Shown here: positions 6,623 to 63,817 of the stretch, one piece after another
Layout: each line of letters starts with the position of its first letter
Numbering within the stretch: position 1 is the stretch's first letter
From: Escherichia phage C6
Sequence record: MW679410.1
DNA length: 64,000 nucleotides
Reading direction: 5' to 3' (one strand)
Notes under the pieces: generated by a model
Database searches by the model: none
Told to the model about the DNA's origin: nothing
Seen by the model: only the letters and a program-made list of their open reading frames with translations
Position numbers and translations under genes: made by a program

Positions 6623-6664
6623 AATTTTTCTCTCTTAGTTAAAAGTTTATTCTCCATGAGAGCC

Positions 6665-6693
6665 ATTATAACATGGCTCTCGATAAAGTAAAC
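6665..6693 (-). promoter_or_regulatory. T4-type early promoter
   Basis: Minus strand GTTTAC-N17-TATAAT; inverted repeat GAGAGCCAT/ATGGCTCTC spans the -10. Confidence 0.55.
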
Positions 6694-6695
6694 TA

Positions 6696-7244
6696 CTAAT
6701 TCAATACATTAACCACTGCACTACGAGGTACTACGCTAAAATCACCAGCATGTACAACGTTCAGCAGCTCAACACCGTCTTCAACCCACTGGTCTGTTAC
6801 CCATCCACAGATAGGATTATCAAAAGGACGACGGATAGACACAGCAACACACAGCAGGTCAGTAGGGTCTTGTTCTTCAACTTCTTGGAACAGGATGAAC
6901 TCTGCTTCATAAACCAAGATTTTCTCTATTTTGTTATTGTCTAAACGACGACCGTGGATGACGTAAGATTTGGCAAACCAGTCACTTTTGGTAAATTCTT
7001 CAACAATAAATTCGCCTTCGCCAAAAACATCAGTCAGAGTTTTATGGCCGGAAATCAAGGCATTAGTTTTAATTTCAGGTTCAACCAGTTTATAGGTTTT
7101 GCCGATTTTGATAGTCTGAGTAGTCATAGTGGTTTCCTTAATTTCCAGTGGTTTAACAGGGCATACATAAGTGCTTAAAACATCAAAATCAATCAGTTTA
7201 GCTGCCGGATTTGGAGTGTATTTAGGGTTGTAATTAAATTTCAT
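6696..7244 (-). CDS. hypothetical protein, paralog 2 of a tandem pair
   Basis: 182 aa; C-terminal GWVTDQWVEDGVELLNVVHAGDFSVVPRSAV matches paralog 1. Confidence 0.7.
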   Translation of the reverse strand: MKFNYNPKYTPNPAAKLIDFDVLSTYVCPVKPLEIKETTMTTQTIKIGKTYKLVEPEIKTNALISGHKTLTDVFGEGEFIVEEFTKSDWFAKSYVIHGRRLDNNKIEKILVYEAEFILFQEVEEQDPTDLLCVAVSIRRPFDNPICGWVTDQWVEDGVELLNVVHAGDFSVVPRSAVVNVLN

Positions 7245-7750
7245 ATTGTTCTCAATTCAATAAAATCTACGAGTTCAGCATGGGATTTGCGGAACATTAC
7301 TTGGCGGCCACCAATGACAACCTCATCTTCTGGTATTTCGTAAACAGCAAGATAGAATCCTTTAGAAGATAATTCAGCACGCTCTTCACGAGTAAACCAG
7401 CGCATCATATCATACTCGCTGGCAAAGGCAAAATGGTAGAGGTTAACAAACCAACCTGGAATGTAGTTATCTACACCTTTATAATCTTCATGTTCGAATT
7501 TGGTTTTAATTACCATATTAGAATTTTTAACCAACAATTCGTCTTGACTTGGTAGTGGAATATTTTTATTATTGGTATGATGGTGTCTAAAATTAGGTCT
7601 GTCGAAACCTACTTCCAATAACCAACCTTCACTCCATTCGTCAAATGAGCCTCTATACGGGGTTAATTGGCGGCATTGTTGACGAGTGATTGCGATAACA
7701 TCGCTGTTGTCTAGGATACTGAACGATGACTCCACTCGATAAATTTTCAT
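7241..7750 (-). CDS. hypothetical protein (169 aa)
   Basis: ORF preceded by early promoter cassette and GAGGAG SD. Confidence 0.7.
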   Translation of the reverse strand: MKIYRVESSFSILDNSDVIAITRQQCRQLTPYRGSFDEWSEGWLLEVGFDRPNFRHHHTNNKNIPLPSQDELLVKNSNMVIKTKFEHEDYKGVDNYIPGWFVNLYHFAFASEYDMMRWFTREERAELSSKGFYLAVYEIPEDEVVIGGRQVMFRKSHAELVDFIELRTI

Positions 7751-7777
7751 TTTGTTCTCCTCATGTTGATAGGGTAG

Positions 7778-7806
7778 ATAATATCATGTCATGAGGAGAA
7801 GTAAAC
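7778..7806 (-). promoter_or_regulatory. T4-type early promoter cassette
   Basis: Minus strand GTTTAC-N17-TATTAT plus CTATCAAC leader and GAGGAG SD. Confidence 0.6.
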
Positions 7807-7810
7807 ACTT

Positions 7811-10357: not shown

Positions 10358-11092
10358 TTAACCTCTAATCAGTGAAAAAATTGAAGCATTCAGTGGAAGA
10401 CCTTTTTTCAACTTCATTTTGTCAATAAAAGAAAGGTGTTCTAAACGCTCCAGACCTTGGATAATTTTATCATACATATCGTAACGCGTTTCTGCTTCAG
10501 ACAATTTAAACTTGACGCGCCAATCAGGCCCACCAATTAAAGATTTAAGACCCTTTTCCATAGTACCGATTGAAGCGTTAGAACCGTGGATACGGGCCTT
10601 AACCGCGATGACAGAAGGGGTCTTATCAGTAGCTCCTGATTTAATAAGGTCCTTAAGACGTTTTTCACGCTTTTTAAGGCCTTTTTGGGTATCTTTAATA
10701 TTTTTAACGATTTTACGAATTTTGTAATAATTATCAGGGGTAACTTTAAAACTATTAGGCATTTTAGAACTACCTGAAATACGGACCGCTAAACGGGTCT
10801 GGGCGCGCTTCAATTCATCTAGAGACAAATCGGCACGTAAGCTGTTGTACTTAACTTTAACCGGGATTACATTACCTTCGATATAACCAATATCATTATT
10901 AAAACGTTCAAATGAAATCTTATCATTAACTGAATTCTCATCAAAGCGCTCGCCTGAATAAGCACACACTTTTTGTTCAAGAAGTCTACGAACATACTTA
11001 CTAGACAGATTGAAGTCCTTACCACGTTTATAAGCAGAAGCTTTGGTATGTTTGCGGCGGTTGTAAACCTTTAATTCAAATTCAGGGGTCAT
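10358..11092 (-). CDS. srd: hypothetical protein, Srd-position (possible anti-sigma decoy)
   Basis: 244 aa; size and position between dda and the mod genes match T4 srd; identity by synteny only. Confidence 0.45.
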   Translation of the reverse strand: MTPEFELKVYNRRKHTKASAYKRGKDFNLSSKYVRRLLEQKVCAYSGERFDENSVNDKISFERFNNDIGYIEGNVIPVKVKYNSLRADLSLDELKRAQTRLAVRISGSSKMPNSFKVTPDNYYKIRKIVKNIKDTQKGLKKREKRLKDLIKSGATDKTPSVIAVKARIHGSNASIGTMEKGLKSLIGGPDWRVKFKLSEAETRYDMYDKIIQGLERLEHLSFIDKMKLKKGLPLNASIFSLIRG

Positions 11093-11132
11093 GATATTTT
11101 TCTCATCTTACGGACGATTAGTTGATATGTCT

Positions 11133-11161
11133 ATAGTATCAAGTTACTCGATAAAGTAAAC
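11133..11161 (-). promoter_or_regulatory. T4-type early promoter cassette
   Basis: Minus strand GTTTAC-N17-TACTAT upstream of the srd-position gene. Confidence 0.55.
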
Positions 11162-11229: not shown

Positions 11230-11844
11230 TCAGTAAGAAAGAACGGAAAGATTCCAAATGGTGTAATTATTCCATTTAGGATTTCTCTCAATAGAGTCTA
11301 CGCGCAGCGTAGTTCCCGCAGGGAACATCATCTCATCTTCATCATTGATTAATTGTAAGTTTGCTATACGGGTAGATTCAGGAAATGCGCCTGGGAACTC
11401 TTCAGGGGGAGCAGCACATAACATTTTAAAGATTTCTTCCTGATAATTGTACACAAATGGCGCATCATTAATACAAAAGATATTAAATGTTCCATAGAAG
11501 TTATAAGATGCGAAATTCCTTGCCACGTTGAAGTCTTTAGAGAAGCTCATCACACGGTCGAATTCAATTACCGCACCTACACACATTGTGGACTCTAGAT
11601 ACTTCATAGTCTTTTTAGATATGCCGCGATAGAGCTTATCAGGCACTACAGAAGTCAGGTTCTTACGGATGATTTTGTTCAGAGTTTCCTGGATACAATC
11701 TGGTTTATTTTCCATGCACTGCCAGAGGGTACTCTGTTCTAAATCAGAATACACCTCATCAATTTCTATCTGAGTATTCTCACGGAAATCATCGCATTTG
11801 ACATTGTTGATAAATTCTGCTAATTTATGGCTCGGATATAACAT
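11230..11844 (-). CDS. modB: ADP-ribosyltransferase ModB-like
   Basis: 204 aa; R-S-E ART signature: LYRG, SFS, and EDEMMF glutamate motif. Confidence 0.7.
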   Translation of the reverse strand: MLYPSHKLAEFINNVKCDDFRENTQIEIDEVYSDLEQSTLWQCMENKPDCIQETLNKIIRKNLTSVVPDKLYRGISKKTMKYLESTMCVGAVIEFDRVMSFSKDFNVARNFASYNFYGTFNIFCINDAPFVYNYQEEIFKMLCAAPPEEFPGAFPESTRIANLQLINDEDEMMFPAGTTLRVDSIERNPKWNNYTIWNLSVLSY

Positions 11845-11898
11845 ATTATTCTCCTCAGTTGGTAGAAAGATAGTACCACAAGCTTCCTTGCCTGTAAA

Positions 11899-12468
11899 CT
11901 AAAAATCCAACATTTTTAAATGAATTGTTTTATACTCGATTTCGTACGGGTCTCTTTTGACGGTTTCGATTGCAACAATCTCAAATCGCGATTGGCTGGA
12001 GACCATGAACTCACATTCAGTTTCAACCATATCATAGAGGTCAATACGAGTTTCATCAATTTCAAGGTCGTCTACATTCCCTGCAAGAACAAGGTCGATA
12101 GCATGGTTGTAGTAGTCGAAAATGAACGGTGCATTCCTGAGACTTAAAATGGTTTTGGTTCCGTATTCCCATGCCCCTGCAAACTGACGAGCCTGAGAGT
12201 ATTGTGTACTAAAAGAAGTAACGCGACCAGGAGACCATTGACACCCAACAGAAAGAACTTCAAGTTGCTCAAGTTCTCTGGTGGTAATCCCACGATACAA
12301 CTCTACTGGAACCGCTGAAGTAACATGCTTGCGAACCAGTTTGTCGAGGTCGTAATGGAAGTTAGGGTCCTTTTTAGCATCCAGACATTTCTCTAACAAC
12401 GCTTGTTCAGATTTTGAGAATTTGGAATTGATTCGGTCTTGATAAAGACATTTTTGTTCGATGTTCAT
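11899..12468 (-). CDS. modA: ADP-ribosyltransferase ModA-like
   Basis: 189 aa; LYRG arginine motif, TSFST, ECEF glutamate motif; paralog of adjacent ORF. Confidence 0.7.
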   Translation of the reverse strand: MNIEQKCLYQDRINSKFSKSEQALLEKCLDAKKDPNFHYDLDKLVRKHVTSAVPVELYRGITTRELEQLEVLSVGCQWSPGRVTSFSTQYSQARQFAGAWEYGTKTILSLRNAPFIFDYYNHAIDLVLAGNVDDLEIDETRIDLYDMVETECEFMVSSQSRFEIVAIETVKRDPYEIEYKTIHLKMLDF

Positions 12469-12492
12469 ATGACCTCCAGTGATTTAGAGGTC

Positions 12493-12521
12493 ATTATAAC
12501 ATGAAGGGAGGAGGTGTAAAC
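12493..12521 (-). promoter_or_regulatory. T4-type early promoter
   Basis: Minus strand GTTTAC-N17-TATAAT upstream of the modA-like gene. Confidence 0.55.
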
Positions 12522-14101: not shown

Positions 14102-14343
14102 AGGAAACCTCGTTTAAATTCAACTTTATCGATATCATCAGTCTCGTGACGGATTTCGGCATTAAATTCGATAGAACCGTCTTCATGCATCATAAATGAA
14201 TGGACAATAACTTCGGTATACCAAGGAGTATAAAAGTACTTTTTCAATACGTGGTTAGCGATAATTTCATCCAAAGTTTTATTAGGTTTAATCCAACGAT
14301 TTAACATAGTGTTCTCCTCTATAAGGTAAGACCATCTTAACAC
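14098..14343 (-). CDS. hypothetical protein (81 aa)
   Basis: ORF. Confidence 0.55.
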   Translation of the reverse strand: MLRWSYLIEENTMLNRWIKPNKTLDEIIANHVLKKYFYTPWYTEVIVHSFMMHEDGSIEFNAEIRHETDDIDKVEFKRGFL

Positions 14344-14377
14344 AACCTTCCTAGAAAGTAAACCCTTAAAACGAAAA

Positions 14378-17562: not shown

Positions 17563-17848
17563 CTGTCACCTCTTTAACGATATTTTTGTTATCGAAATTG
17601 GCATCGCAATACAAAACATAGTTATATTGCATAACACCGCTTGAAGCTAATTGGTCTGACACTTCTTTAGCCATATCAGGGCGGTCGCGTTTAGTGATGT
17701 TCATGATATCAGCATAAATCTGATGTTCAACCGATTCTTGGTCTGCAGTCATAGACCATTCACAAAGGTCTTTATCCAATCCAGCCGTAACTGGAGCGGT
17801 GCCACATGATGCTACTGTAAGGATTGCTGCGATTAATAACTTTTTCAT
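17555..17848 (-). CDS. sp: spackle-like periplasmic protein (superinfection exclusion)
   Basis: Start moved to internal ATG giving MKKLLIAAILTVASCG signal peptide; about 97 aa; position in the 61.x block matches T4 sp. Confidence 0.55.
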   Translation of the reverse strand: MKKLLIAAILTVASCGTAPVTAGLDKDLCEWSMTADQESVEHQIYADIMNITKRDRPDMAKEVSDQLASSGVMQYNYVLYCDANFDNKNIVKEVTGE

Positions 17849-17876
17849 TTTTAACTCCTCGTTAGTTGATAGGTCT

Positions 17877-17906
17877 ATAGTATCACTACCATAGACCGTT
17901 GTAAAC
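17877..17906 (-). promoter_or_regulatory. T4-type early promoter cassette
   Basis: Minus strand GTTTAC, 18-nt spacer, TACTAT, then conserved CTATCAAC leader. Confidence 0.6.
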
Positions 17907-18492: not shown

Positions 18493-18822
18493 TTAGATTT
18501 CCTCACAGAAGGCCCATTCAGCATGATAAACCGTAGCGCCTTTAGTATCATTTAAACAAACCACATCTACCGGAGCAATTACACGATAAAGTCGAGGTTC
18601 TCCTCCCACTGAACGAGCTGCTCGTCCAGCATAAATCTTAGCCAAACCGATATCTTCAGTAAAGAACACACGATTTAGGTTTTTCTTACGACCGGTTTCA
18701 GACAAAACTCCTGTATCCTCAGGAGGACAAAGCATATTACCGATATTAGCAACACTACAACTTCCGTGGTAATACACTTTATATTCTGCTTTACAATCGA
18801 TGGTTTTCATTTTGTTCTCCAA
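18493..18822 (-). CDS. hypothetical protein (109 aa)
   Basis: ORF preceded by early promoter cassette. Confidence 0.6.
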   Translation of the reverse strand: MENKMKTIDCKAEYKVYYHGSCSVANIGNMLCPPEDTGVLSETGRKKNLNRVFFTEDIGLAKIYAGRAARSVGGEPRLYRVIAPVDVVCLNDTKGATVYHAEWAFCEEI

Positions 18823-18834
18823 GTTGATAGGTCT

Positions 18835-18863
18835 ATAGTATCACGCCTACAGGAGATGTAAAC
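18835..18863 (-). promoter_or_regulatory. T4-type early promoter cassette
   Basis: Minus strand GTTTAC-N17-TACTAT plus CTATCAAC leader. Confidence 0.6.
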
Positions 18864-26779: not shown

Positions 26780-27012
26780 TGCTTAACAATAATGATTTGT
26801 GCGTTTGATTTACGTTCAGCGACGATGGCCCAGATTAAAGCCACTACCCAACCAATCATCGTCCAGCCTAACAGGAGATTAAGGAAGAAAATTCCTACAT
26901 TACTACGAGTGCCTCGCAGAAGAGCCAGAATCCATGGTAAAAAGTAACCGATGAACATAATAACCAGAGAACCGAATCCTAAAACACCAGCACTAACGAT
27001 TAAAGCTTCCAT
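26776..27012 (-). CDS. imm: superinfection immunity membrane protein Imm-like
   Basis: 78 aa; two TM helices; motif LLGWTMIGWVVALIWA; position just upstream of gene 43 as in T4. Confidence 0.65.
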   Translation of the reverse strand: MEALIVSAGVLGFGSLVIMFIGYFLPWILALLRGTRSNVGIFFLNLLLGWTMIGWVVALIWAIVAERKSNAQIIIVKQ

Positions 27013-27042
27013 TGTAATTTCCTCATGTAGTTGATAGGAAGG

Positions 27043-27072
27043 ATACTACCACGTTCCATGTGGTATGTAAAC
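27043..27072 (-). promoter_or_regulatory. T4-type early promoter cassette
   Basis: Minus strand GTTTAC-N18-TAGTAT plus CTATCAAC leader. Confidence 0.55.
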
Positions 27073-39146: not shown

Positions 39147-39529
39147 TTTGCCGCCTTAACAATTTTAAGGTCGACGAATTTTTTCTTACGTTGGTTTTTC
39201 ATACGACGGATAGTTTTATCCGAGATTTCACCAGGGGCCCAAGCTTTAGATTCTACACCAAAGGCAGCGACATCGAATTCATCAAGGATATATTGAACCA
39301 GGATTTCACGAATACCGTTCTTACCAATTTTCTGGTCTTTAGAGTGCATGATTGGTAACAGTTCAGCAACCCATTGGTCAAGAACCTGAGGAGTTACAAA
39401 ACCGGTTTTCATCAGTTCGTTTACTTTATCGAAAGCGAAAGAGTTCAGTACGTTTTTAATAGCTTGTGACATAATAATTTCCTCAGTTTTAAAGTTATAA
39501 TCCGTAGGACCATTATACTCTGGTCCCAA
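39143..39529 (-). CDS. hypothetical protein (128 aa)
   Basis: ORF. Confidence 0.55.
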   Translation of the reverse strand: MGPEYNGPTDYNFKTEEIIMSQAIKNVLNSFAFDKVNELMKTGFVTPQVLDQWVAELLPIMHSKDQKIGKNGIREILVQYILDEFDVAAFGVESKAWAPGEISDKTIRRMKNQRKKKFVDLKIVKAAK

Positions 39530-39540
39530 GAGTTTGTAAA

Positions 39541-39789
39541 CTATTTTTGTGCTTTAGCACCTTTCCAACCTTCATACATCATTGCGGCGGAAATTAACAA
39601 AGCACCCGAGCAACTTGAATATTTGTGATTCCAAAACCAGTTTAGAAAAACTTCGTCATCAATACCTTGGGCCATCATATTTTCAAAGAACTGACGACGG
39701 GCTTCAGCAATACGTTGTGATAATTTAGATTCAGGATTCATTTTAAATTTTCCAATTGCCATTTTCATCAATGAATTCAATCCAGTCAT
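39541..39789 (-). CDS. hypothetical protein (start ambiguous, 66-82 aa)
   Basis: ORF. Confidence 0.45.
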   Translation of the reverse strand: MTGLNSLMKMAIGKFKMNPESKLSQRIAEARRQFFENMMAQGIDDEVFLNWFWNHKYSSCSGALLISAAMMYEGWKGAKAQK

Positions 39790-39881
39790 TTACTGACCAC
39801 TTGGTTGTATCGCCTTTTGGAGCCACATTTAAAGTATATAACCCTTGCTTAAAAAGCATTCGTTTGATATTCATATTTTCC

Positions 39882-40175
39882 TCAGCTGTAACGATAACAT
39901 TCGTTTGATTTACGTTTTGCAACTTGATGAGAAGTATTGTAATCAGGTTCATCGTCGTTGTAAACATCTTTTTTCAGCTTTCTCACTTCTTTACGAAGCT
40001 GGCGATTCATTTCATTCTTAACTTCAGAATCAACACCGCGCATACGTTTCCACTTGTCAGAACGGAAGATATTTTCTTCAACCAAATCCTGACTTACGCC
40101 GTCCGGTGCTTTACGACGTCCGGAATAATAAAAATCTTTTACAGACAATTCTTTACGACGGATAGTTTTACCCAT
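39882..40175 (-). CDS. hypothetical basic protein (97 aa)
   Basis: ORF; Lys/Arg-rich. Confidence 0.5.
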   Translation of the reverse strand: MGKTIRRKELSVKDFYYSGRRKAPDGVSQDLVEENIFRSDKWKRMRGVDSEVKNEMNRQLRKEVRKLKKDVYNDDEPDYNTSHQVAKRKSNECYRYS

Positions 40176-40432: not shown

Positions 40433-40611
40433 GATTTAATTTCCTTTGCTACTGAACAAAATAAAGAACGGTCGCACACCATCAATGGGGCATCAGGGTG
40501 AGTCAAAGGTTGATACCATACATCAAGATTTGTTACCTTTGTTACTTGAACAGGGTAGCCATTTACTGAATAATACTGGTCGACTTTAATTTCTTTATCT
40601 TGGATAGTCAT
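40429..40611 (-). CDS. hypothetical protein (60 aa)
   Basis: ORF preceded by early promoter cassette. Confidence 0.5.
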   Translation of the reverse strand: MTIQDKEIKVDQYYSVNGYPVQVTKVTNLDVWYQPLTHPDAPLMVCDRSLFCSVAKEIKS

Positions 40612-40640
40612 AATGTTCTCCTCATGTGTTGATAGGATAG

Positions 40641-40669
40641 ACTATAACACGTGAGGAGAGGAAGTAAAC
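40641..40669 (-). promoter_or_regulatory. T4-type early promoter cassette
   Basis: Minus strand GTTTAC-N17-TATAGT plus CTATCAAC leader and GAGGAG SD. Confidence 0.6.
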
Positions 40670-42378: not shown

Positions 42379-42551
42379 CAGAACGCCTTATCAGCAAAGC
42401 GAAGTTGAGCTTCAAGCCAATGGATATAGTCGGCTGCAGCTTTAATCAAATCGGATTCTAGGTCAGGTAAAGAACCCGAATCCGACAACTCGTAAAGCGA
42501 ATGTTCAATCAGACGGCCTTTGTGAAGGCCAATTTCAATTTTGGTACTCAT
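42378..42551 (-). CDS. small hypothetical protein (57 aa)
   Basis: Hand-translated MSTKIEIGLHKGRLIEHSLYEL...; TGATG overlap with next ORF. Confidence 0.35.
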   Translation of the reverse strand: MSTKIEIGLHKGRLIEHSLYELSDSGSLPDLESDLIKAAADYIHWLEAQLRFADKAF

Positions 42552-42667
42552 ATCCAAACTCCATATCGATTAAATCATTGTTTGAAGGTTCATTATACTC
42601 TATTTCGGAATCGTTGTAAACCGGTTCCTCTGGCTCGGTAGTTTCCCACCGAGCGACATACCATGGC

Positions 42668-44139: not shown

Positions 44140-45146
44140 TTCAGCAGCTCCAGAGCCTGTTCAAGACGGTCTAAACGATTGGTAGACTCTTCCCAAAGTT
44201 TCTTGGCAGCGGTATATTGCCCGGTCAGTTTTTTGTTGATAGCCAGGGCATCTTTATACGCTTTTTCTAAGGCAACGATTTCCGGTAACTTGGATTTAGT
44301 AATTGGTGTAGGGGCCATGATAGGGCTGTTCAAGTCGTTAATCAAGTCTTCTAATGTAGCAGGCTCTTTATCAGTATTCACAATTTCCTCACATTTTTCT
44401 TGGTAAATTTCAGCGTCAGTTTTTGGAACAGGGCATTTGATTTCGCGAACTGTTACTAAAGCTTCATATCCTTTCCAGCCTAAGTGGTGTTTGATTTCTT
44501 GAATCTCATATTTCTCTACTGTATCCATCAAAGCTAAAGCCTGTTCTACCATATTCAGGGTATTGTAGGAAATATCTTGGTATTTCGAAACTTCAACTTC
44601 ATCTTTAGGTTTCCAACTAGGCGACCAAATAATAGAAATAAGTACCTTCCCTTTATAGTTGTTTGTTTTAATCATGCCATTAGCCATAGGGTGGATAGTA
44701 CGGCAATCACCCTTTACAAAGGTTTTGGTTGCTGCTTTTAGAATTAATGCAGAGTTAGCCTTAAATTCGCCAGCCCAACGTTGTGGAAATAGGCCCTTAG
44801 GGTCGGTACCTTTAATTTTGACATACCCTTTTAAAACATCACCAAACCATTGGTAGCTAACAACGTGGCTAGAACCTGGATATTTCTCTTTGCCAAACTC
44901 TGAAAGGATGTCCTTATTGACCAGACGCGAAAGCAGTCGAGAACTTTTAAATGTATCTACGATATCAGTAATAAACAAACGACCCGCAATCTTTTCGATT
45001 TCATCTTTGAAACAACCAGATAGTGCTCCATCAATTTGGTCTACCCATTTATTGATATTAGAAACTATTACCACATATGGGGTTAATGGAGGGGTGTTGG
45101 CAGTGATATACGTAGTAAAGGCATTAATGTATTCAGTACGAGTCAT
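44136..45146 (-). CDS. hypothetical protein (336 aa), C-terminal coiled coil
   Basis: ORF. Confidence 0.7.
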   Translation of the reverse strand: MTRTEYINAFTTYITANTPPLTPYVVIVSNINKWVDQIDGALSGCFKDEIEKIAGRLFITDIVDTFKSSRLLSRLVNKDILSEFGKEKYPGSSHVVSYQWFGDVLKGYVKIKGTDPKGLFPQRWAGEFKANSALILKAATKTFVKGDCRTIHPMANGMIKTNNYKGKVLISIIWSPSWKPKDEVEVSKYQDISYNTLNMVEQALALMDTVEKYEIQEIKHHLGWKGYEALVTVREIKCPVPKTDAEIYQEKCEEIVNTDKEPATLEDLINDLNSPIMAPTPITKSKLPEIVALEKAYKDALAINKKLTGQYTAAKKLWEESTNRLDRLEQALELLK

Positions 45147-45172
45147 GATATTCTCCTCAAGTTGATAGAAAG

Positions 45173-45202
45173 ATTATACTCCATCCATCCTTGGATGTAA
45201 AC
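45173..45202 (-). promoter_or_regulatory. T4-type early promoter cassette
   Basis: Minus strand GTTTAC-N18-TATAAT plus CTATCAAC leader and GAGGAG SD. Confidence 0.6.
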
Positions 45203-47200: not shown

Positions 47201-47725
47201 TTATGCGAGAACCGTCTTTAAACGCTCTTCAAATTTCTGAAGCAGAGCTTGGCGTTCAGCTCGTTGTGATTTGTACTGCTCGATACGACCTGAAGTGAGG
47301 GCGTACTGTTCATTTACTGATTCCCGCATGAATTCAGGAATCTCTTTACAAGCTTTGATTTCGTCAAACTTATCAATAACCGCTTGTTCCTCGGCAATCA
47401 GATTATCGAAATAAGCGATATCAGATTTAACGTTTGCCAGGTCGGATTCGGTAGGCATTAAACGTTTGTTACGTTCAGCTTGATAAGCTTGATTGTTTTC
47501 ACGACTCCAGTAAAGAATACGTTTTTTGTTGGTGTTTTTATAGAGCTCTACAATACCAACTGAATCGATGATAGCAATCCAGTTCCAACGGCTTTTGTAA
47601 ATCTCTCCTCCGGCAACGGTAATCTCATTACCACAAGCAACGTCGTTAAAGAACTTGCTTTGTTTTTCAGATTTGAAATTACCATTATTAAAATTAATCA
47701 GTGAAAAAATATCTTTAGCGTTCAT
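47201..47725 (-). CDS. hypothetical protein (174 aa)
   Basis: ORF preceded by early promoter cassette. Confidence 0.65.
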   Translation of the reverse strand: MNAKDIFSLINFNNGNFKSEKQSKFFNDVACGNEITVAGGEIYKSRWNWIAIIDSVGIVELYKNTNKKRILYWSRENNQAYQAERNKRLMPTESDLANVKSDIAYFDNLIAEEQAVIDKFDEIKACKEIPEFMRESVNEQYALTSGRIEQYKSQRAERQALLQKFEERLKTVLA

Positions 47726-47751
47726 GATAACCTCCAGTAGTTGATAGGTCT

Positions 47752-47780
47752 ATAGTATCATTTCTGCCGGAGATGTAAAC
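47752..47780 (-). promoter_or_regulatory. T4-type early promoter cassette
   Basis: Minus strand GTTTAC-N17-TACTAT plus CTATCAAC leader. Confidence 0.6.
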
Positions 47781-48134: not shown

Positions 48135-49115
48135 TTATTTCAGAAGGGTAACTTCAGCGATTTCGTTCCAGTCATTTTTATCGGTGGCAATGAAGTCCGC
48201 CAGATAAAGAGCTGTACGTAATGATACGTTACGAAGACGAGATACATTAGCCTTCATCCATGCTAAAGCTTGATAAGTCTCAGCATCAGTCAGACCTCGA
48301 TTTTGCATCATATCAGTGGACAGGATAACGTCTTCAACACGAACCATAATCTCTTCGTTAGAGTGAACTCCGAGGTCTAAGTAAACTGAACGAGATACTA
48401 AAGCCTGGAGGTGTGGAGCAAGTTTAGTTCCACGCTCTAATTCACGGTCGATATCAACGTTGGTGATGAACACGATGGTGCCTTCGTATTCGAATTCTTT
48501 ATCGATGTTTTTGTCATCGAGATAAGAACTTGAAGTGCTCCAGCACACCTTACGTTTTTCACCGGTATCCAATGCTGCTTTTAACAGGTTCAGGATATCC
48601 ATATCAGAGAATACATCAACATCATCGATAAGAAGAACACTATTAGGGCCGCGGTTATTCCAAAGCTGCTCGTAAAGACCGATTCCACTAATCTTTCCGT
48701 TGATTGATTTATATTCGATAGTTTCATTTTCGTGGGCATTCTGTAATGCTTTATCCAAAGAATACGTTTTACCAATACCTGCGGCACCAGAGATGATAAG
48801 GGAACGAATTTTACCATCGATGATTCCGTTAGTCATCATGTTCATTACTTTAAAACGTTTGTTGATGCGATGTTTCATTTCTTCAGAGGATTCAGTAACA
48901 ACTGCAGGAGCTTCAGCACCTTCCATTTCAACGTCACATTTGAACACCCATACACCACGTTCAACACCATCAATCTGTACGAATACCTTGCCATCACCGA
49001 GGTGAGCTTCGGATTCATGAATTTTATTAGGGAACCAGGTTTTACCTGAACTCATGAACGTACCAGAGATTTCATTACCGCGATAGATACCTTTGTTGAT
49101 TTTGATAGTTAACAT
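48135..49115 (-). CDS. AAA-type P-loop ATPase
   Basis: Start set at MLTIKINKG with GGAG SD; Walker A GAAGIGKT; Walker B-like LLIDDVD. Confidence 0.7.
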   Translation of the reverse strand: MLTIKINKGIYRGNEISGTFMSSGKTWFPNKIHESEAHLGDGKVFVQIDGVERGVWVFKCDVEMEGAEAPAVVTESSEEMKHRINKRFKVMNMMTNGIIDGKIRSLIISGAAGIGKTYSLDKALQNAHENETIEYKSINGKISGIGLYEQLWNNRGPNSVLLIDDVDVFSDMDILNLLKAALDTGEKRKVCWSTSSSYLDDKNIDKEFEYEGTIVFITNVDIDRELERGTKLAPHLQALVSRSVYLDLGVHSNEEIMVRVEDVILSTDMMQNRGLTDAETYQALAWMKANVSRLRNVSLRTALYLADFIATDKNDWNEIAEVTLLK

Positions 49116-49152
49116 TATATTCTCCATTTCACTCAGTAGATTTGATAGGTCC

Positions 49153-49181
49153 ATAATAACATGCTCTACGAGGTTGTAAAC
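49153..49181 (-). promoter_or_regulatory. T4-type early promoter cassette
   Basis: Minus strand GTTTAC-N17-TATTAT; divergent from the plus-strand late promoter. Confidence 0.55.
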
Positions 49182-52924: not shown

Positions 52925-53161
52925 TCACCAGTATTTGTTGATGGTAGAAATTAATTCTTGGACCTGGGCTGTATTCAGTTTACACCCACAACCCTTTAAT
53001 GTGTCTTTAAGGAGCCACGGTTCCTTGAGCTCGTCCTTTTCCAGACGAATTCTGTATCCTCGATAATCGGCAAAGATACTTCGGTCGTCGAATATCTTAA
53101 TCTCAAGGATACGACCGTTGATTTCATATTCTAATGAAACCGTAGTACTTGCAAGTTTCAT
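52925..53161 (-). CDS. hypothetical protein (78 aa)
   Basis: ORF preceded by early promoter cassette. Confidence 0.5.
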   Translation of the reverse strand: MKLASTTVSLEYEINGRILEIKIFDDRSIFADYRGYRIRLEKDELKEPWLLKDTLKGCGCKLNTAQVQELISTINKYW

Positions 53162-53188
53162 ACTGTTTTCCTCATTAGTTGATAGGTC

Positions 53189-53217
53189 TATAGTATCATG
53201 TTCCTAGAGGATGTAAA
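53189..53217 (-). promoter_or_regulatory. T4-type early promoter cassette
   Basis: Minus strand GTTTAC-N17-TACTAT plus CTATCAAC leader. Confidence 0.6.
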
Positions 53218-53232
53218 CACTAAAAATGAAAA

Positions 53233-56622: not shown

Positions 56623-57081
56623 TTAAAGATAGATTACTTTAGTGCTTGTTTTACCTTCTAAACGTTTAGAGTTAACAAATGCCATACGGCATTTAAGGGA
56701 ATATCCTTTATCAGGATGTTTACGGTCTACTGTCATACCTAGCCATAAGGTTTTATCGGTAATTTCGAGACGCAATGGACGATACACTTTACCAGGGACA
56801 ATTTCAGATTCTACATCAGGCAGAGGTTCCTGGATTAAGAATTCATGGATTTCTTTAACATGGTTATGGAGTTGCTTGAATAAAGCAAAAACGTATTTTT
56901 CGTCGATTTCACGTTGGATAGCACGGTCCAACAAATGATTAGAGTACTTAATAAAGAAGGCTGGGACTCCGCTCTTAATGGCGGCTTTTTTGATGGACGC
57001 ATTCAGTTCACGGAATTCGGTTTCGAACTGACGACGTAATTTGTTGCGGCGGATGAATACTTCTGAATTAATTTCTGACAT
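56623..57081 (-). CDS. regB: endoribonuclease RegB
   Basis: 152 aa; EVFIRRNKLRRQFE...HLLDRAIQREIDE matches T4 RegB. Confidence 0.8.
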   Translation of the reverse strand: MSEINSEVFIRRNKLRRQFETEFRELNASIKKAAIKSGVPAFFIKYSNHLLDRAIQREIDEKYVFALFKQLHNHVKEIHEFLIQEPLPDVESEIVPGKVYRPLRLEITDKTLWLGMTVDRKHPDKGYSLKCRMAFVNSKRLEGKTSTKVIYL

Positions 57082-57109
57082 TTTGTAATCTCCTGTAGTT
57101 GATAGGTTT

Positions 57110-57138
57110 ATAGTATCATGTCTACAGGAGATGTAAAC
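57110..57138 (-). promoter_or_regulatory. T4-type early promoter cassette
   Basis: Minus strand GTTTAC-N17-TACTAT plus CTATCAAC leader. Confidence 0.6.
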
Positions 57139-58819: not shown

Positions 58820-59119
58820 TTAGAAAGAACCAGAACCTTTAATTGTGTTCTGACGACCTTTATTTTCTAATTCAGAGTGGTCGATTTCATATGCTTGTGC
58901 TACGCCAAAGGCCTTTTTAACTTTAGCTAAAGAACCTTTAGATGTAACAATATTAAAAGTATTACCTTTGGTAAAATCAACCAAATCCACTTGTACACCC
59001 TGTTTACCGAGGCTTGCTACAATAGCATCAACATATTCTTGGTCTAAATTGCCTTGAACTCCAATTTGAAATGCTTTAGGAGCTTTGGCTTCTGTAATAA
59101 ATTCTTGATAAGTTTTCAT
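58820..59119 (-). CDS. internal protein (IPII-like) with capsid-targeting sequence
   Basis: 99 aa; N-terminus MKTYQEFITEA is the T4 internal-protein CTS. Confidence 0.7.
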   Translation of the reverse strand: MKTYQEFITEAKAPKAFQIGVQGNLDQEYVDAIVASLGKQGVQVDLVDFTKGNTFNIVTSKGSLAKVKKAFGVAQAYEIDHSELENKGRQNTIKGSGSF

Positions 59120-59162
59120 TGTTATTCCTTAAGTTGATAGAAGTATTCTATCACGGATTTAA

Positions 59163-59579
59163 TTAAGCGTAAATAGCCTTGCCATAATGTTTGTACCAGG
59201 TAGGACGCTGTGCAATTTTTTCGTCCAAACGGGCCTGAGATATAGCAATAGAAGCTTCGTGTGGAGTATAGTCACCACGGAATTCCTGAGGAATATCACT
59301 AATGTCCTGGACCGTAGTATCCTTGATATTAAAACCACGTTTTAAACATTCCGCTATAAGCTCGATTTGACGTTTACGTAAAAATTCAAGCTTATCATAA
59401 AAGAAAGTAACATGGCCGGTACCAAGGATAAAAGTAGAGCTAATTTTAAAATCACGAACACGTTTACCATTAGCAACATGCTTACGAACTGCACCGAAAA
59501 CACGTGGTAATTCGCGATATTCAGCCATTAAGTGTTGGTCGGCCAATTCAGATACTAAGGTAAGGTTAATACGAGTCAT
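59163..59579 (-). CDS. denV: endonuclease V (pyrimidine-dimer DNA glycosylase)
   Basis: Start set at [34 protein letters not shown], which matches T4 DenV. Confidence 0.85.
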
Positions 59580-59639
59580 TTTAGTGTTCTCCATGTTTGT
59601 GTGAGAACACTATATCACAGCTATTGTAAAAGTAAACTG

Positions 59640-59942: not shown

Positions 59943-59983
59943 ATGTTTCCTTTAAAGGTAAATAGGTCTAAGTATTCGCTTTA

Positions 59984-60580
59984 TTAATTACCACGGGCCG
60001 CATTAGCAACGGCGTAAGCGTACTGGATATTAGCGTCTTTAAACGTACCTTTAGAGGTATCTAGTTCTGCCTTAAAGCCAGCTTTAGTCATAACATCAGC
60101 GAATTCTTTACGGAAAGCCATTGTATCAAGACCTTTCCATGTTGATTTGTGCTTGGCAAATTCAAGACCAGCGAAGTTGACAGCCTTAGCCAATTTATTA
60201 TCAATAGCCCATTTACCTGCTTTAGGTACAAATACCGGGCCTTTCTGTTTAGAGAACAGTTTTAAATTCCAGCGACGAAGGTCACCGTCGGCTTTAATAA
60301 AAGCTGCGTCCAAGTTACTAGCAACAACATCTTGGATATGGCCAAATTTAAGTCCATCAGCTTCAATATTTAGGTCGTTACGCCAGCGAAGTCCTTCCCA
60401 GGCGAAAGCTTTAAAGTCGGAAGCCTTTGTAGCTAAATACCGTTCAATAGGAGCTGTTTTAGCGTCAAAACCGTTTCCTGGGTTGTCAACGCCGTTTCCT
60501 CGGTAAGTCCACTCATCTTTATTAATGCCTTGGACCTTTCCTACAGAAGCTTCGGCGATAAATTCTTTATACGTTTTCAT
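59984..60580 (-). CDS. internal protein (IPIII-like) with capsid-targeting sequence
   Basis: 198 aa; N-terminus MKTYKEFIAEA; close to T4 IPIII length. Confidence 0.7.
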   Translation of the reverse strand: MKTYKEFIAEASVGKVQGINKDEWTYRGNGVDNPGNGFDAKTAPIERYLATKASDFKAFAWEGLRWRNDLNIEADGLKFGHIQDVVASNLDAAFIKADGDLRRWNLKLFSKQKGPVFVPKAGKWAIDNKLAKAVNFAGLEFAKHKSTWKGLDTMAFRKEFADVMTKAGFKAELDTSKGTFKDANIQYAYAVANAARGN

Positions 60581-60633
60581 ACGGGTTCCTTAAAGGTAAA
60601 TATTTTAATTGGTATGTTCAAGTAACTGTAGAT

Positions 60634-60662
60634 ATACTATCACAATTCTAGGAGATGTAAAC
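60634..60662 (-). promoter_or_regulatory. T4-type early promoter
   Basis: Minus strand GTTTAC-N17-TAGTAT upstream of an internal-protein gene. Confidence 0.5.
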
Positions 60663-61061
60663 TTATTTGTAGGTTTTCATCCAATTCTTGAACAAAGCCG
60701 CGACGTCTTTCTCTTTAACGTTCAGTTTAACGTCCAACATTTTACCACCCGCTGCTCTCGTTTGGCGAATCTTAGCAGTACCGGTTTCACCATTCCACTC
60801 AACATAATACTGTCCAGTGTTCATTGCAATACCGTCACCGTAGTCTTCATTTTTAGAAGTGGTGAAGGCCAGCTTCATAGTCTTAGAGACGCGAGCCTGC
60901 ATGCCTGTCTGCAGAGCGTTACGAACTCGAATAACCTGAGGAGTGGCCTGGGTCAGGTTCTCATTCAGTTCTTCAGTGAACTCTTCAGATTCAAACATAT
61001 CCAAAAGTTCTTTAGATGCAGGAATTACATTCTCTGCGATAAATTCATTATAAGTTTTCAT
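60663..61061 (-). CDS. internal protein with capsid-targeting sequence
   Basis: 132 aa; N-terminus [11 protein letters not shown]. Confidence 0.7.
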
Positions 61062-61542
61062 ATGCTTTCCAAGTACCTGTTTTAAATGTAGAAATCACGC
61101 GCTTAGCACGATTAGGAGTTTGTCTATACCAACGAGATTGGGCCAGGTTAACTGCCGCATCGTCCCAACGTTTCTGTTGGAGCATACGTAAAGAGTTAGT
61201 GAACCCGGCTACACCTGCTTCACCCATCTGGAAGACCATGTTAATTAAAGCACAACGACGAACTTCGTCCAGCACATCATAAACAGGTTTCAATTTAGGA
61301 TTACGCAGAATAGCTCTACGAGCATTTTCAACCGATCGGTTAAAGAGTTGCTCAGCTTCAGCCATAGTAATACGGCCATTACAAACCCGGCCCATAAGCT
61401 TATCAAGTTCAGCGCGAGCAACATCTTTAGATGGGTTCTTGGTAACCAACTGACCAATCCCAATAGTCCAATAACCTTCGGTGTCTTTATAAAGATTTAA
61501 ATCAAGACCTTCGTCTTGACGTAACATATCAAAAATATCCAT
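61048..61542 (-). CDS. e: lysozyme (endolysin, T4 e family)
   Basis: 164 aa; [32 protein letters not shown]... matches T4 lysozyme. Confidence 0.9.
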
Positions 61543-61572: not shown

Positions 61573-62022
61573 TCAAAAGAGCGAATCTAAAACCTTAAAC
61601 ATCGACGGGCCCATGACATATTCCCATTGTGGACGTTTAATCAAAGCGAATGCATCGAATTCAGGAATCGTGCGACCGTCAGGGAATGTATGGTAAGCTG
61701 TACATTTGCAATCCTTGAACTGCTCGTGTTCCACAGGCACAGTATATAAGAACAGGTGTAGATTCTTATTGCTTGAATATTTGAACTCACCTAGGTCTTT
61801 CAGGAACGCAGGGTCGTATGCTGTGAATCCAATCTCTTCTTCGGTTTCACGCATCGCCGCTTGAATAGGCTCTTCGCCTGGTTCTACATGACCTTTAGGG
61901 ATGTCCCATTTATGACGCATATTCTCTGGATTACGAGAGCCTGTTACACGGCCCATGACCAGTTCTTTATCAACGGTCATGAATAAAATACCTGCCGATA
62001 ATTCTTTCGCTTTCTTACTCAT
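61573..62022 (-). CDS. nudE: Nudix hydrolase NudE
   Basis: Nudix box GHVEPGEEPIQAAMRETEEEIGF; start placed at an internal Met to avoid overlap with the upstream ORF. Confidence 0.75.
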   Translation of the reverse strand: MSKKAKELSAGILFMTVDKELVMGRVTGSRNPENMRHKWDIPKGHVEPGEEPIQAAMRETEEEIGFTAYDPAFLKDLGEFKYSSNKNLHLFLYTVPVEHEQFKDCKCTAYHTFPDGRTIPEFDAFALIKRPQWEYVMGPSMFKVLDSLF

Positions 62023-62260
62023 CGTCTCGTTCCCATGATTGTTTAAAAATATCTCGTATAATAATTTCAACACACGTTTCTGTTGACGGACTTTCACTAT
62101 CAGATATTTGGACCATATAATCAGAAATAGGTCGGAACATATCCAAGTCGCTTTCTAAATCTTCTTTGATTTTCTCTTCTGATGTTCCGGTGTCATAGGA
62201 ATACAGATAAGAATCACATGACTCGGATTTAATATAAATTGCAATACTCATTTGCGGCAT
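62015..62260 (-). CDS. hypothetical acidic protein (81 aa)
   Basis: ORF. Confidence 0.5.
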   Translation of the reverse strand: MPQMSIAIYIKSESCDSYLYSYDTGTSEEKIKEDLESDLDMFRPISDYMVQISDSESPSTETCVEIIIRDIFKQSWERDDE

Positions 62261-62835
62261 TCCTCAATAAAGGAGTTCAATGTATTTTTCTTGGTGTTAT
62301 CATCATATACCTTTTTAACTTTAGAAATACGAAAAGGTACTTCGATAACCGAGGTCCATAAAAATGATGCAATAAGACCCGAGATAGCTGCAGACATCGC
62401 TGAAGCAAATACACAAATAGGCAGGTCATTATCTGTTGTCAGGAAAAACCAAAGGAGTGGAAAAAATAATATTCCCATCCAAACATAGAACCTAGAACTC
62501 ACTAATTTGTCATATTCGTCACTCCATGCACGAAAGCCGTATTTTTTGCTATAACAAATCAATGGGTCAGGTGTCTGTTCTTTGAGCGGTTCTGGTTGCC
62601 AACCGTTTACAATATAGCCCATTTTATATTCCTCAATTAAAAGCCGTTTCATTTCAGCAGTACAACCTGACCAATCTATCGTACTAGCTGGAATTCCTTC
62701 ATCACCATCATCAATATTTCGCCAGGACTTTTTAATAATCATATGCTCACCACTTGGGATAATAATTCCGGCATTTTCCGACCGACGGATGAAGTTTGTA
62801 TCAATGCCCATACACCCGGGTTCATAAAGGGCCAT
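62248..62835 (-). CDS. membrane protein (195 aa)
   Basis: Two TM helices in the C-terminal half. Confidence 0.6.
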   Translation of the reverse strand: MALYEPGCMGIDTNFIRRSENAGIIIPSGEHMIIKKSWRNIDDGDEGIPASTIDWSGCTAEMKRLLIEEYKMGYIVNGWQPEPLKEQTPDPLICYSKKYGFRAWSDEYDKLVSSRFYVWMGILFFPLLWFFLTTDNDLPICVFASAMSAAISGLIASFLWTSVIEVPFRISKVKKVYDDNTKKNTLNSFIEECRK

Positions 62836-63524
62836 TACCAGCCCTCCATAGGGAATTCCAGATATACTTGAGCATTAACACGGATTTCATTAGTAATCTT
62901 TTTAACACGGTCGGTATTACGAGACACACGACCAAACCAGCGCCAACCGTTACTTACTGCACGAGAACCCGTATGCCATGTCTGCCAATCAAACTGGAGC
63001 AACGTGCGGTCAGGAGCATCCCACTTGGTTAATTCATTAGACTCAATTTTTTCCAGAACTTCTTTATGCCACTGACGATAGATAAGTTCGCCTTCAGGAA
63101 TCTGGCTAAATTGCGCAGTTCCGGTTGCAAAATGGGTAGGACACACATCAGCGTTAACAAGACCAAGAATATGTTCAGAATGGTAACGAGGATTATCATA
63201 ATCAGGCTGCCCTGCGGTAATAAAGTGTTGACCGACCGGAATATCCGGGCGTGGTACATCATCATGGTGGAAGCCTGGAATTGCAGGGTACCAGCCGGGC
63301 ATTAACATGTGTACACGGGAATCAAATACAATATCAGGGCCACATTGCCAATCTTCAGGCAGGTTTTCAATAAAGCTACGAGTAATAGGACCGCCGTGTT
63401 TATGAGCAAAATAAGCATCGCAATTAAAGAACATAGGCTCATTTTTAATCATATCATTACTGATATCTTGAGCAAAATTACCTACTATAGAAGCTTTAGA
63501 ATTAAAAGTTTTTGGGCCATTCAT
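62835..63524 (-). CDS. hypothetical protein (229 aa)
   Basis: ORF; His/Asp-rich segment PGFHHDDVP. Confidence 0.65.
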   Translation of the reverse strand: MNGPKTFNSKASIVGNFAQDISNDMIKNEPMFFNCDAYFAHKHGGPITRSFIENLPEDWQCGPDIVFDSRVHMLMPGWYPAIPGFHHDDVPRPDIPVGQHFITAGQPDYDNPRYHSEHILGLVNADVCPTHFATGTAQFSQIPEGELIYRQWHKEVLEKIESNELTKWDAPDRTLLQFDWQTWHTGSRAVSNGWRWFGRVSRNTDRVKKITNEIRVNAQVYLEFPMEGW

Positions 63525-63538
63525 AATATTTTCCTCAC

Positions 63539-63751
63539 TTACTTTTTGTTGAAAAAGTACATTTTACCTTTAGGGGATAAGGATACACGAAGTGCGTTAC
63601 CAATACCAACTGAACATTTAACCAGGTCAGCAGATTTCAATTCACCAAATGCTTGACGAAGGTCACCGTCACGAGTGTTAACCATCAGGCATTTAGCACC
63701 AGCTGCACGAACTTCGTTTAACATGTTGATTGCTTGGTTAGAAAGTTTCAT
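63539..63751 (-). CDS. hypothetical protein (about 70 aa)
   Basis: Start set at MKLSNQAINML, downstream of the promoter cassette that lies inside the longer ORF-track call. Confidence 0.55.
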   Translation of the reverse strand: MKLSNQAINMLNEVRAAGAKCLMVNTRDGDLRQAFGELKSADLVKCSVGIGNALRVSLSPKGKMYFFNKK

Positions 63752-63788
63752 TTTATTCTCCGTTTCACTCTGTTGTTTTGATAGGTCT

Positions 63789-63817
63789 ATAGTATCATGC
63801 CTATAGACCTTGTAAAC
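63789..63817 (-). promoter_or_regulatory. T4-type early promoter cassette
   Basis: Minus strand GTTTAC-N17-TACTAT with flanking inverted repeat AGGTCTATAG/CTATAGACCT. Confidence 0.6.

Follow-up and report, generated by a model that had tools for sequence, protein, structure and literature searches.

Early promoters with embedded hairpins in the rIIA-to-e region of Escherichia phage C6 and their possible action on read-through RNA

To characterize an early-promoter cassette that recurs along the minus strand of Escherichia phage C6, we analyzed a stretch of 64,000 nucleotides (nt) from sequence record MW679410.1, referred to here as the window. Sequence comparison places the window in the rIIA-to-e early region of a Dhakavirus of the JS98/IME08 group, approximately 95% identical to IME08. 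An 8-kb sample matched Escherichia phage IME08 (Dhakavirus, Tevenvirinae) at 94.8% identity, and many other T4-like phages also matched. The window is collinear with IME08 positions 1-63,195 in nine alignment blocks of 92.6-97.4% identity (mostly 94-97%), its G+C is 38-41% throughout, and the annotated genes of the region in the collinear IME08 stretch all lie on the minus strand. Genes that stand behind the promoters described below include the T4 early orthologues cef, motB, motB.2, srd, modA, modB, mrh.2, sp, and imm, as well as 55.x, nrdC.4, nrdC.8, nrdC.10, regB, denV, and internal-protein (IP) genes.

The pattern GTTTAC-N15-19-TANNNT has 26 matches in the window, 24 of them on the minus strand (two of these 24 are alternative registers of the same site), while dinucleotide shuffles of the window give 4.3 +/- 2.0 matches and none of 100 shuffles reaches 26. 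With a relaxed scan, exact GTTTAC promoters numbered 22 on the minus strand and zero on the plus. Together with two copies that have one mismatch in the -35 (59174, ATTTAC; 6041, GTATAC), these make up the curated set of 24 minus-strand promoters, each named by the upper coordinate of its cassette (e.g., 57138 for 57079..57138). Every one of the 24 is followed by a Shine-Dalgarno sequence (SD) and an ATG-initiated open reading frame (ORF) of 43-336 amino acids (aa). A generic sigma-70 scan (TTGACA/TATAAT) found 60 sites in the window against 54 expected; this lack of enrichment indicates that the signal is specific to the T4-type pattern. An Rfam 15 scan of the whole window at gathering score returned no matches.

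The window consensus is aaAa..GTTTACAtc....cgTGaTA.tAT...cCTa.caAc, with an A-rich aaAa 5' of the -35 and a TG before most -10 hexamers (TAnnnT). The initial annotation described at least 14 copies of a ~45-nt unit with a 17-nt spacer in the layout of T4 early promoters. All 13 coordinates that it listed coincide with the low end of a pattern match, and so the recurring minus-strand element is real; its count, however, rises to 24, 13 copies have a spacer of 17 nt and the other 11 one of 18 nt, and the conserved unit is approximately 100 nt, running from the A-rich stretch at about -45 through the ATG. The cassettes are compact and begin within a few bases of the preceding gene's stop codon. 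The assignment to T4 early promoters stands: the consensus matches, the cassettes precede orthologues of T4 immediate-early genes, and T4 carries promoters at orthologous sites, some of them sequence-identical (the T4 record AF158101 in GenBank has no annotated promoters or start sites). Thus, the repeats are almost certainly T4-type early (immediate-early) promoters. They are also likely to belong to the "promoter-early stem-loop" (PeSL) class, which has already been published, so the kind of element is known. Host sigma-70 RNA polymerase would recognize the A-rich UP region, the GTTTAC, the TG-extended TAnnnT, and a start-site box, CCTATCAAC.

This box occurs in exact form nine times in the window, on each occasion on the minus strand and 3-4 nt past a promoter -10 hexamer; counting copies with up to one mismatch, 14 of the 24 promoters have it. 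It keeps 3-4 nt from the -10, whereas anything from about 15 to 31 nt separates it from the ATG, which argues for a promoter or start-site element rather than a signal of the translated leader. With +1 positions placed by the usual rule of 7-8 nt after the -10, the box would span about -3 to +6, and the A of ATCAAC would be +1. It had been described as a conserved transcribed leader; the conservation is confirmed, but likely only the ATCAAC is transcribed. The box fits a published preference of T4-like early promoters for C at positions -3 to -1 (PMC1524935). Related phages carry it as well, as an IMG/VR scan for the box gave 112 loci, and the box or ACAACTATCAAC is present at about 6-8 of 25 predicted T4 early promoters, denV (AGACCTATCAAC) among them. 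Candidate contributions of the box are start-site choice, promoter escape, and a role with Alt-modified polymerase, or it may merely reflect homogenization by gene conversion. We rejected two further candidates: maintenance of the box by pairing of its TATCA with the TGATA of the extended -10, which shows no covariation when the -10 region changes, and an antisense promoter using the -35-like TTGATA in its reverse complement, for which the sequences inspected hold no properly spaced plus-strand -10.

The box could instead be an RNA leader bound by a phage or host factor, such as RegA or RegB, that controls early mRNA stability or translation. Its high conservation in the phage group and its partial transcription would agree with this, as would the presence of regB in the window behind promoter 57138 and of the RegB motif GGAG in 14 of the 24 SDs. 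The GGAG motif is located in the SD, outside the box. The box itself holds a fixed distance to the -10 but no such distance to the SD or ATG, 10 of the 24 promoters do without it, and it resembles neither the RegB target, GGAG plus an A-rich tract, nor the AU-rich AUG sites of RegA (PMC3014915); moreover, the partial complementarity of TATCA and TGATA lacks covariation. A leader bound by such a factor is, on this evidence, highly improbable.

Beyond the promoter elements, the cassettes contain inverted repeats, and the two arms are matched copy by copy. For each spacer, we calculated the RNA duplex energy with the downstream segment (-10 to ATG) of the same copy, and swapped pairs served as the comparison. 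Cognate pairs averaged -10.9 kcal/mol versus -7.7 kcal/mol for swapped pairs in the 24 window copies (p < 5e-5), and -11.5 versus -7.8 kcal/mol (z = -16.7) in a non-redundant set of 129 cassettes from the window plus IMG/VR, in which 38% of cognate but 6% of swapped pairs reach -14 kcal/mol or lower. The same holds for 25 T4 promoters (-12.3 versus -7.4 kcal/mol, z = -9). At 81 promoter-less gene junctions of the window, in contrast, cognate and swapped energies are alike (-6.0 versus -6.2 kcal/mol, z = +1), and none reaches -14 kcal/mol. A palindrome extending upstream of the -35 was rejected, as that region shows no cognate pairing with the leader (z = +1.1); the 5' arm is thus confined to the spacer. 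Also rejected was a fixed operator-like dyad, since the dyad centers are spread over about 11 nt (-3 to +8, counted from the -10). The arms vary in sequence from copy to copy, while a core of about 22 nt (GATACTATAGACCTATCAACTA) is constant. RNA-fold z-scores of single cassettes range from -2.1 to -6.4.

The stems fall into two classes. In class A (24% of cassettes; specificity z = -7.6), the spacer pairs with the SD region. In the regB cassette (57079..57138), the spacer ATCTCCTGTAG pairs with CTACAGGAGAT, which includes the SD (-18.4 kcal/mol; z = -6.4), and the loop holds the -10 (57110-57115), the predicted +1 (~57103), and CCTATCAAC (57098-57106). The cassette before motB.2 (7748..7806) has a perfect 11-bp anti-SD stem, TTCTCCTCATG / CATGAGGAGAA (-18.3 kcal/mol; z = -5.4), and that before 55.6 (40609..40669) has the anti-SD stem CTCTCCTCACGTG / CACATGAGGAGA (-18.3 kcal/mol; z = -6.1) with the box in the loop. 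Before nrdC.8 (47723..47780), the anti-SD stem ATCTCCGGCAG/CTACTGGAGGT has decayed, with one wobble and one mismatch (z = -2.1), and it is perfect in relatives. The modB cassette (12466..12521) pairs ACCTCC with GGAGGT and has breakpoints versus relatives at its -35. The denV cassette (59577..59637) has its anti-SD, GTGTTCTC, in the -10/discriminator immediately before the predicted +1; the partner of this arm is GAGAACAC at the SD (z = -3.7).

In class B (32% of cassettes; specificity z = -13.3), the spacer pairs with the 3' part of the -10, the discriminator, or the box. The cassette 63749..63817, from the -35 to the ATG of a 70-aa ORF, has its -10 at 63789-63794 and a box, CCTATCAAA, at 63778-63785. 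The inverted repeat reported for it at 63781-63810 is real: 63800-63811 pairs with 63782-63793 across the -10 (AAGGTCTATAGG / ACTATAGACCTA, -15.9 kcal/mol), and the cassette RNA has a z of -4.3. The sp (spackle) cassette (17846..17906) has an 11-bp stem, GGTCTATGGTA/TACTATAGACC, around the -10 with a GUGA loop (-16.6 kcal/mol; z = -3.65), and the stem GAGAGCCAT/ATGGCTCTC of the motB cassette (6620..6693) likewise spans the -10 (-20.8 kcal/mol; z = -4.8). Before cef (5979..6041, the GTATAC copy), the spacer GGTAGGGTA forms a 12-bp stem with TACCCTATC (-17.4 kcal/mol; z = -4.4), in which the start-site box itself is paired. The cassette before a 55.2-like gene (39470..39541) has the stem GGGACCA/TGGTCC spanning the -10.

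Pairing is accompanied by compensatory change. Among 16 aligned class-A cassettes, 5 of 11 pairs are changed on both sides (22 cells); 94% of cells are paired in the 11-bp helix and 94.9% over the whole tested structure, compared to at most 53% in slid controls, and none of 500 shuffles reaches the observed pairing. Orthologous genes in different phages have different but self-complementary arms. T4 regB has TTTTCCTCTTGACTG/CAGTTAAGAGGAGAA, T4 nrdC.8 has GTTCCTCTGT/ACGGAGGAAC, and T4 motB.2 has TTCCTCGGTTAG/CTACTGAGGA, unlike the pair in the window, while T4 denV has the same cassette as regB in the window. Three different architectures are found at denV, each of which masks the SD. The complementarity and the compensatory changes bear out the initial annotation in that the repeats carry information beyond the promoter.

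Could these repeats nevertheless be functionless by-products of cassette duplication, gene conversion, and template-switch quasi-palindrome correction, with the box reflecting recent common ancestry? The near identity of the ~22-nt core in 6-7 copies would suit such an origin, and so would the use of the same cassette for different genes in different phages, the stems that are decayed or chimeric (47780, 60662, and locus L104), and the half of the cassettes that are stemless. Simple copying, however, would be expected to produce the opposite of variable arms around a constant core. Pairing is also kept across genera with different arms (regB, motB.2, and nrdC.8, T4 versus the window phage), and the stems are limited to promoter-bearing junctions and to the spacer. 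We consider an origin as mere by-products very improbable, and the hairpins are very likely real, selected structures.

None of the embedded stems is followed by a T-run, and the terminator scan picks up separate upstream terminators only; the embedded stems are therefore not of intrinsic-terminator form. Intrinsic terminators (hairpin plus T-run) lie directly 5' of 4 of the 24 cassettes (2811, 14363, 18863, and 53218). The stems may still be transcription attenuators or terminators that insulate the cassettes from upstream polymerase, with SD pairing incidental to the very short intergenic space. When a PeSL stem-loop from RB49 was placed before lacZ, expression dropped to an extent similar to that seen with the rrnB T1 terminator (PMC2839356). 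Hairpins stand only at junctions where a new transcription unit begins, the four upstream terminators are true ones, and most stems leave the SD outside. Yet the T-run is missing from the embedded stems without exception, and a pure terminator would have no need for cognate-specific SD pairing (z = -7.6) or for three independent denV solutions that mask the SD. Taken together, insulation by attenuation appears unlikely.

Our preferred reading is that the hairpins act on read-through RNA. The 5' arm lies in the spacer or discriminator, and in SD-type stems, the 3' arm lies downstream of the inferred +1. With this +1 between the arms, the promoter's own RNA would lack the 5' arm, and only read-through RNA could fold. 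Since upstream stop codons abut the -35 and terminators are found at only 4 of 24 cassettes, read-through RNA should be common. About half of the cassettes carry an embedded hairpin with its 5' arm in the spacer, which is the only sequence-free stretch upstream of +1, and its 3' arm in the -10/discriminator/start region or in the SD region. A gene's own transcript, starting between the arms, would have an open leader, and read-through RNA from upstream promoters would contain both arms and fold. At the SD-pairing copies (regB, motB.2, 55.6, nrdC.8, denV, and modB), the read-through RNA would be translationally silent for that gene, its GGAG would be shielded from RegB, and expression would be tied to the gene's own early promoter. 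RNA structure is known to protect GGAG from RegB (PMC3014915). On read-through RNA, the stems that enclose the -10 may serve as a structural boundary, an attenuator, or a 3'-end stabilizer.

Predicted SD accessibility is consistent with this proposal for part of the set. In the window, the mean unpaired probability of the SD is 0.36 on read-through RNA versus 0.57 on the promoter's own RNA (p = 5e-4). It is predicted to fall below 0.2 on read-through RNA in 6 of the 24 copies (7806, 0.01; 59637, 0.03; 63817, 0.12; 47780, 0.12; 40669, 0.16; 57138, 0.19), while the own transcripts of motB.2 and denV both have 0.62. The promoters' own leaders are nearly unstructured (about -0.5 to -6 kcal/mol). 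Across the 129-cassette set, a predicted unpaired probability below 0.1 is reached by 10 of 129 cognate read-through RNAs, compared to 11 of 645 chimeric RNAs (1.7%; p = 8e-4) and 0 of 129 own transcripts. Internal helix mismatches are G.T in 11 cases versus A.C in 2.

Several observations weigh against an action on read-through RNA, or limit it. Mean SD accessibility over the 129 cassettes does not differ between cognate read-through RNAs and chimeras (0.41 versus 0.43); SD masking as a property of all cassettes was rejected on this ground and the claim narrowed to a subset, making SD masking a minority feature. Accessibility differs only marginally from that of promoter-less genes (p = 0.046). 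No significant stem is present in 65 of the 129 cassettes, and class B, the commoner class, leaves the SD untouched. The class-A cassettes in the alignment were chosen by pairing energy, a choice that inflates the percentage paired and leaves the double changes unaffected. Folding energies of the sense and antisense strands are close (-16.0 versus -15.1 kcal/mol, p = 0.01), and helices arising by chance have a G.T:A.C baseline of 108:67, so that the mismatch asymmetry has a p of ~0.07 (binomial estimate); the mismatch bias and the energies are suggestive of structure in the sense strand (RNA) but not decisive. Finally, the RB49 PeSL stem-loop lowered a transcriptional lacZ fusion and hence acted on transcription, not translation (PMC2839356).

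Altogether, we give a probability of roughly 0.55 to the overall explanation, early promoters with embedded hairpins that act on read-through RNA. The folding predictions suggest strong SD masking for about 8% of cassettes and moderate masking for up to 25%. That the hairpins act on read-through RNA specifically with SD masking in a subset is a tentative proposal, modeled from predicted folds, to which we give somewhat less than even odds. We hold still more tentatively the wider proposal that in T-even-type phages, including T4 (regB, denV, motB.2, and nrdC.8), the early-promoter spacer may double as an anti-SD, such that the gene would be translated only from its own-promoter RNA and would be silent and RegB-shielded on abundant read-through RNA.

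The repeats had also been suggested as recombination hotspots, and here a modest link between cassettes and indels emerges that is consistent with the PeSL literature. Of the eight homology breaks versus IME08, three involve a cassette or the repeated IP-gene 5' ends. Compared with IMG/VR relatives, 24 of 148 breakpoints (16%) fall in cassettes, which make up 4.6% of the sequence; this ~3.5-fold enrichment is approximate, as some of the other breakpoints resemble gaps in stored loci. IME08 orf92 (87 aa; IME08 53229-53489) is absent from the window, and the junction (53156-53177) lies in the SD direct repeat TAATGAGGA(G/A)AAC; with the junction between SD repeats, the gene served by promoter 53218 is orf92 in IME08 and the following gene in the window. 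One window-specific segment, of 1 kb, has its end 7 nt upstream of the promoter 49181 -35, and another, of 1.09 kb in the IP locus (59951-61037), is bordered by repeated IP-gene 5' ends. A given cassette can stand before different genes in different phages, and the ~22-nt core, nearly identical in 6-7 copies, would provide homology for occasional cassette-to-cassette exchange.

In light of these breakpoints, the palindromes may act in DNA, either as cruciforms or single-stranded hairpins that stimulate recombination from cassette to cassette, with gene shuffling or mini-circles as the result, or as a site for a dimeric protein of phage or host that controls early-promoter activity or shut-off. 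Besides the breakpoint enrichment and the three IME08 breaks, most stems are perfect Watson-Crick palindromes with nearly equal sense and antisense energies, PeSL mini-circles have been reported in RB49 and phi1 (PMC2839356), and early-promoter shut-off has been described as incompletely understood (PMC3014915). A common operator is contradicted by dyad centers that wander over ~11 nt and by arms that differ between copies. SD-type stems have loops of 23-30 nt, and loops of this size are unfavorable for cruciform extrusion. The internal mismatches are biased to G.T on the sense strand, and the sole clean indel junction lies in the SD direct repeat, outside the palindrome. Action in DNA is thus improbable.

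Two further observations concern mosaic cassettes. In promoter 39541, 35 nt from the -35 through the -10 plus 5 nt (39507-39541; GTTTACAAACTCTTGGGACCAGAGTATAATGGTCC) are identical to the T4 motB promoter (NC_000866 ~7181-7215), and with a 55.2-like gene behind it instead of motB, it looks like a transplanted promoter. The promoters of motB and srd (6672-6681 and 11140-11155) have the first nine spacer bases, TTTATCGAG, in common and then diverge, a hint of mosaic cassettes.

The remaining cassettes also lie on the minus strand. The IP locus (59117-61110) is expanded relative to IME08, with several tandem genes starting MKTY(Q/K/N)EFI, and its extra 1.09 kb is flanked by the repeated coding sequence CATATGAAAACxTATxAxGAATTTATC, a known type of IP-locus polymorphism. 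Within this locus, cassette 60578..60662 stands before a 198-aa IP-like gene; its spacer, ATCTCCTAG, is an orphan resembling an anti-SD, and past the -10 come a CTACAG remnant and then an unrelated 53-nt leader. It is probably a recombinant, chimeric cassette whose 5' arm has lost its partner. Cassette 59117..59174, the ATTTAC copy, precedes a 99-aa IP gene and has the box TCTATCAAC and no significant stem. Further along, the cassette before a 78-aa ORF (53159..53218), directly downstream of the terminator at 53232-53257, has a weak anti-SD stem (TCCTC/GAGGA), and the nrdC.10 cassette (49113..49181) has the box CCTATCAAA and an imperfect stem, CCTCGTAGA/TCTACTGAG. The nrdC.4 cassette (45144..45202) has the box TCTATCAAC and a mixed-type stem (-11.9 kcal/mol). 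Two promoters overlap upstream coding sequences (CDS): 42549..42621, inside the end of the upstream CDS and before a 57-aa ORF (49.1-like), has neither box nor strong stem and is orthologous to T4 position 47452, and 39872..39965, within the upstream CDS and before a 43-aa ORF, is orthologous to T4 position 41261.

In the lower part of the window, the imm cassette (27010..27072) has the box CCTATCAAC and only a weak stem. The cassette before a gene like RB69 orf040c (18808..18863) has a partial anti-SD stem (TCTCC/GGAGA), which is perfect (11 bp) in one relative; this cassette, that before mrh.2 (14305..14363), and that before a 107-aa ORF (2762..2811; no box, no stem) are the other three with an upstream terminator. 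The modA cassette (11842..11899) has a degenerate box, TCTACCAAC, and the srd cassette (11090..11161) has the box CATATCAAC and no stem.

The 1-kb segment next to promoter 49181 (49189-50199), which IME08 lacks entirely, contains the sole plus-strand gene of the region, an ORF (49218-49973) for a 251-aa protein that has both a collagen-like G-x-y run and a tail-needle-knob domain of the Sf6 type (Pfam Phage_tail_NK, E = 7e-33). The T4 late-promoter consensus TATAAATA occurs on the plus strand about 25 nt ahead of the ATG of this ORF, where it overlaps the UP region of promoter 49181, an early promoter of the minus strand. Just past the stop codon of the ORF, a hairpin plus T-run (49981-49998) has the T-run on the minus strand and is thus placed to terminate minus-strand transcription rather than that of the 251-aa gene. 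A second gene-content difference, unrelated to promoter cassettes, is the mobE HNH homing-endonuclease gene of IME08 (15232-15888), which is missing from the window at ~15218-15263.

Promoter positions also bear on gene annotation. Several IME08 CDS starts (e.g., regB, sp, imm, and nrdC.10) are placed 5' of the promoter-proximal SD/ATG and run through the promoter, and these are probably over-extended. For regB, the IME08 (L114/L115) annotation spans 56920-57471 (183 aa) versus 152 aa from the SD-supported start; the T4 regB CDS, annotated as 153 aa (462 nt), agrees with this 152-aa start. Promoter positions could thus serve to correct several over-extended CDS starts in related genomes. The ORFs behind promoters 2811 and 53218 are seemingly unannotated in IME08.

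The window adds another phage group to those with described early promoters and PeSLs, and it provides a controlled, quantitative case for selection on the stems, based on complementarity, compensatory changes, restriction to promoter junctions, and conservation between Dhakavirus and T4. If the proposed action on read-through RNA is correct, it would explain how dense, tandem, unterminated early units keep translation tied to their own promoter. The mobile cassette would then carry a modular code for promoter use and translation, and some immediate-early proteins would be limited to the brief window of early-promoter activity. In T4, regB and denV offer simple testable cases.

Compared with T4 early promoters, the cassettes share the GTTTAC, the 17-18 nt spacer, the TG-extended -10, and the A-rich upstream region (PMC2988021, PMC1524935), as well as the preference for C just before +1 and the position before immediate-early gene orthologues. 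They differ in the box CCTATCAAC, which is far more uniform here (14/24) than in T4 (~6-8/25). PeSL cassettes have been published for RB49 and phi1, and later for PST/T4 and nt-1/KVP40, with proposed terminator/attenuator and recombination roles (PMC2839356, PMC4122927), and JS98 "PeSL-like sequences" are noted in passing in that literature. Both are repeated intergenic AT-rich regions with an early promoter, a stem-loop (here in about half of the copies), an SD, and an ATG; both have stems between the -35 and -10 or over the -10, and both show indels between close relatives. Class B stems of the window correspond to PeSL subclasses drawn for RB49 and phi1. The published stems, however, are presented as terminators/attenuators and recombination sites, and those of PST/T4 are said to lie just upstream of the promoter, whereas the window stems are not G/C tracts and have no T-runs. 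Spacer-SD pairing, covariation, and a translational consequence are undescribed for PeSLs, and PMC2839356 mentions neither translation nor ribosomes. We found no prior description of spacer-SD pairing at early promoters in the literature searched, although a mention in older T4 literature remains possible.

The closest parallel to the SD-pairing cassettes is in T4 e, soc, 49, and I-TevI, where SD hairpins with an internal promoter silence long transcripts (PMC3014915). In both cases, the SD is paired with sequence upstream of the proximal start site. In these T4 genes, the long transcript folds and is untranslated, while the proximal one, which has no 5' arm, is translated; the counterpart in the window is predicted from sequence. 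The T4 hairpins contain late promoters and keep late functions silent early, whereas the internal promoter in the window is of the early sigma-70 type, the spacer itself forms the 5' arm, and many genes share the arrangement within a repeated cassette. With the promoters and the PeSL class already known, what appears to be new, as far as the literature searched goes, is spacer-SD pairing as an early-promoter variant of T4 masking. If it acts as proposed, it would be the early-gene counterpart of the e/soc/49/I-TevI mechanism, and because its internal promoter is early and not late (gp55), we regard it as a variant of those hairpins rather than a member of their group.

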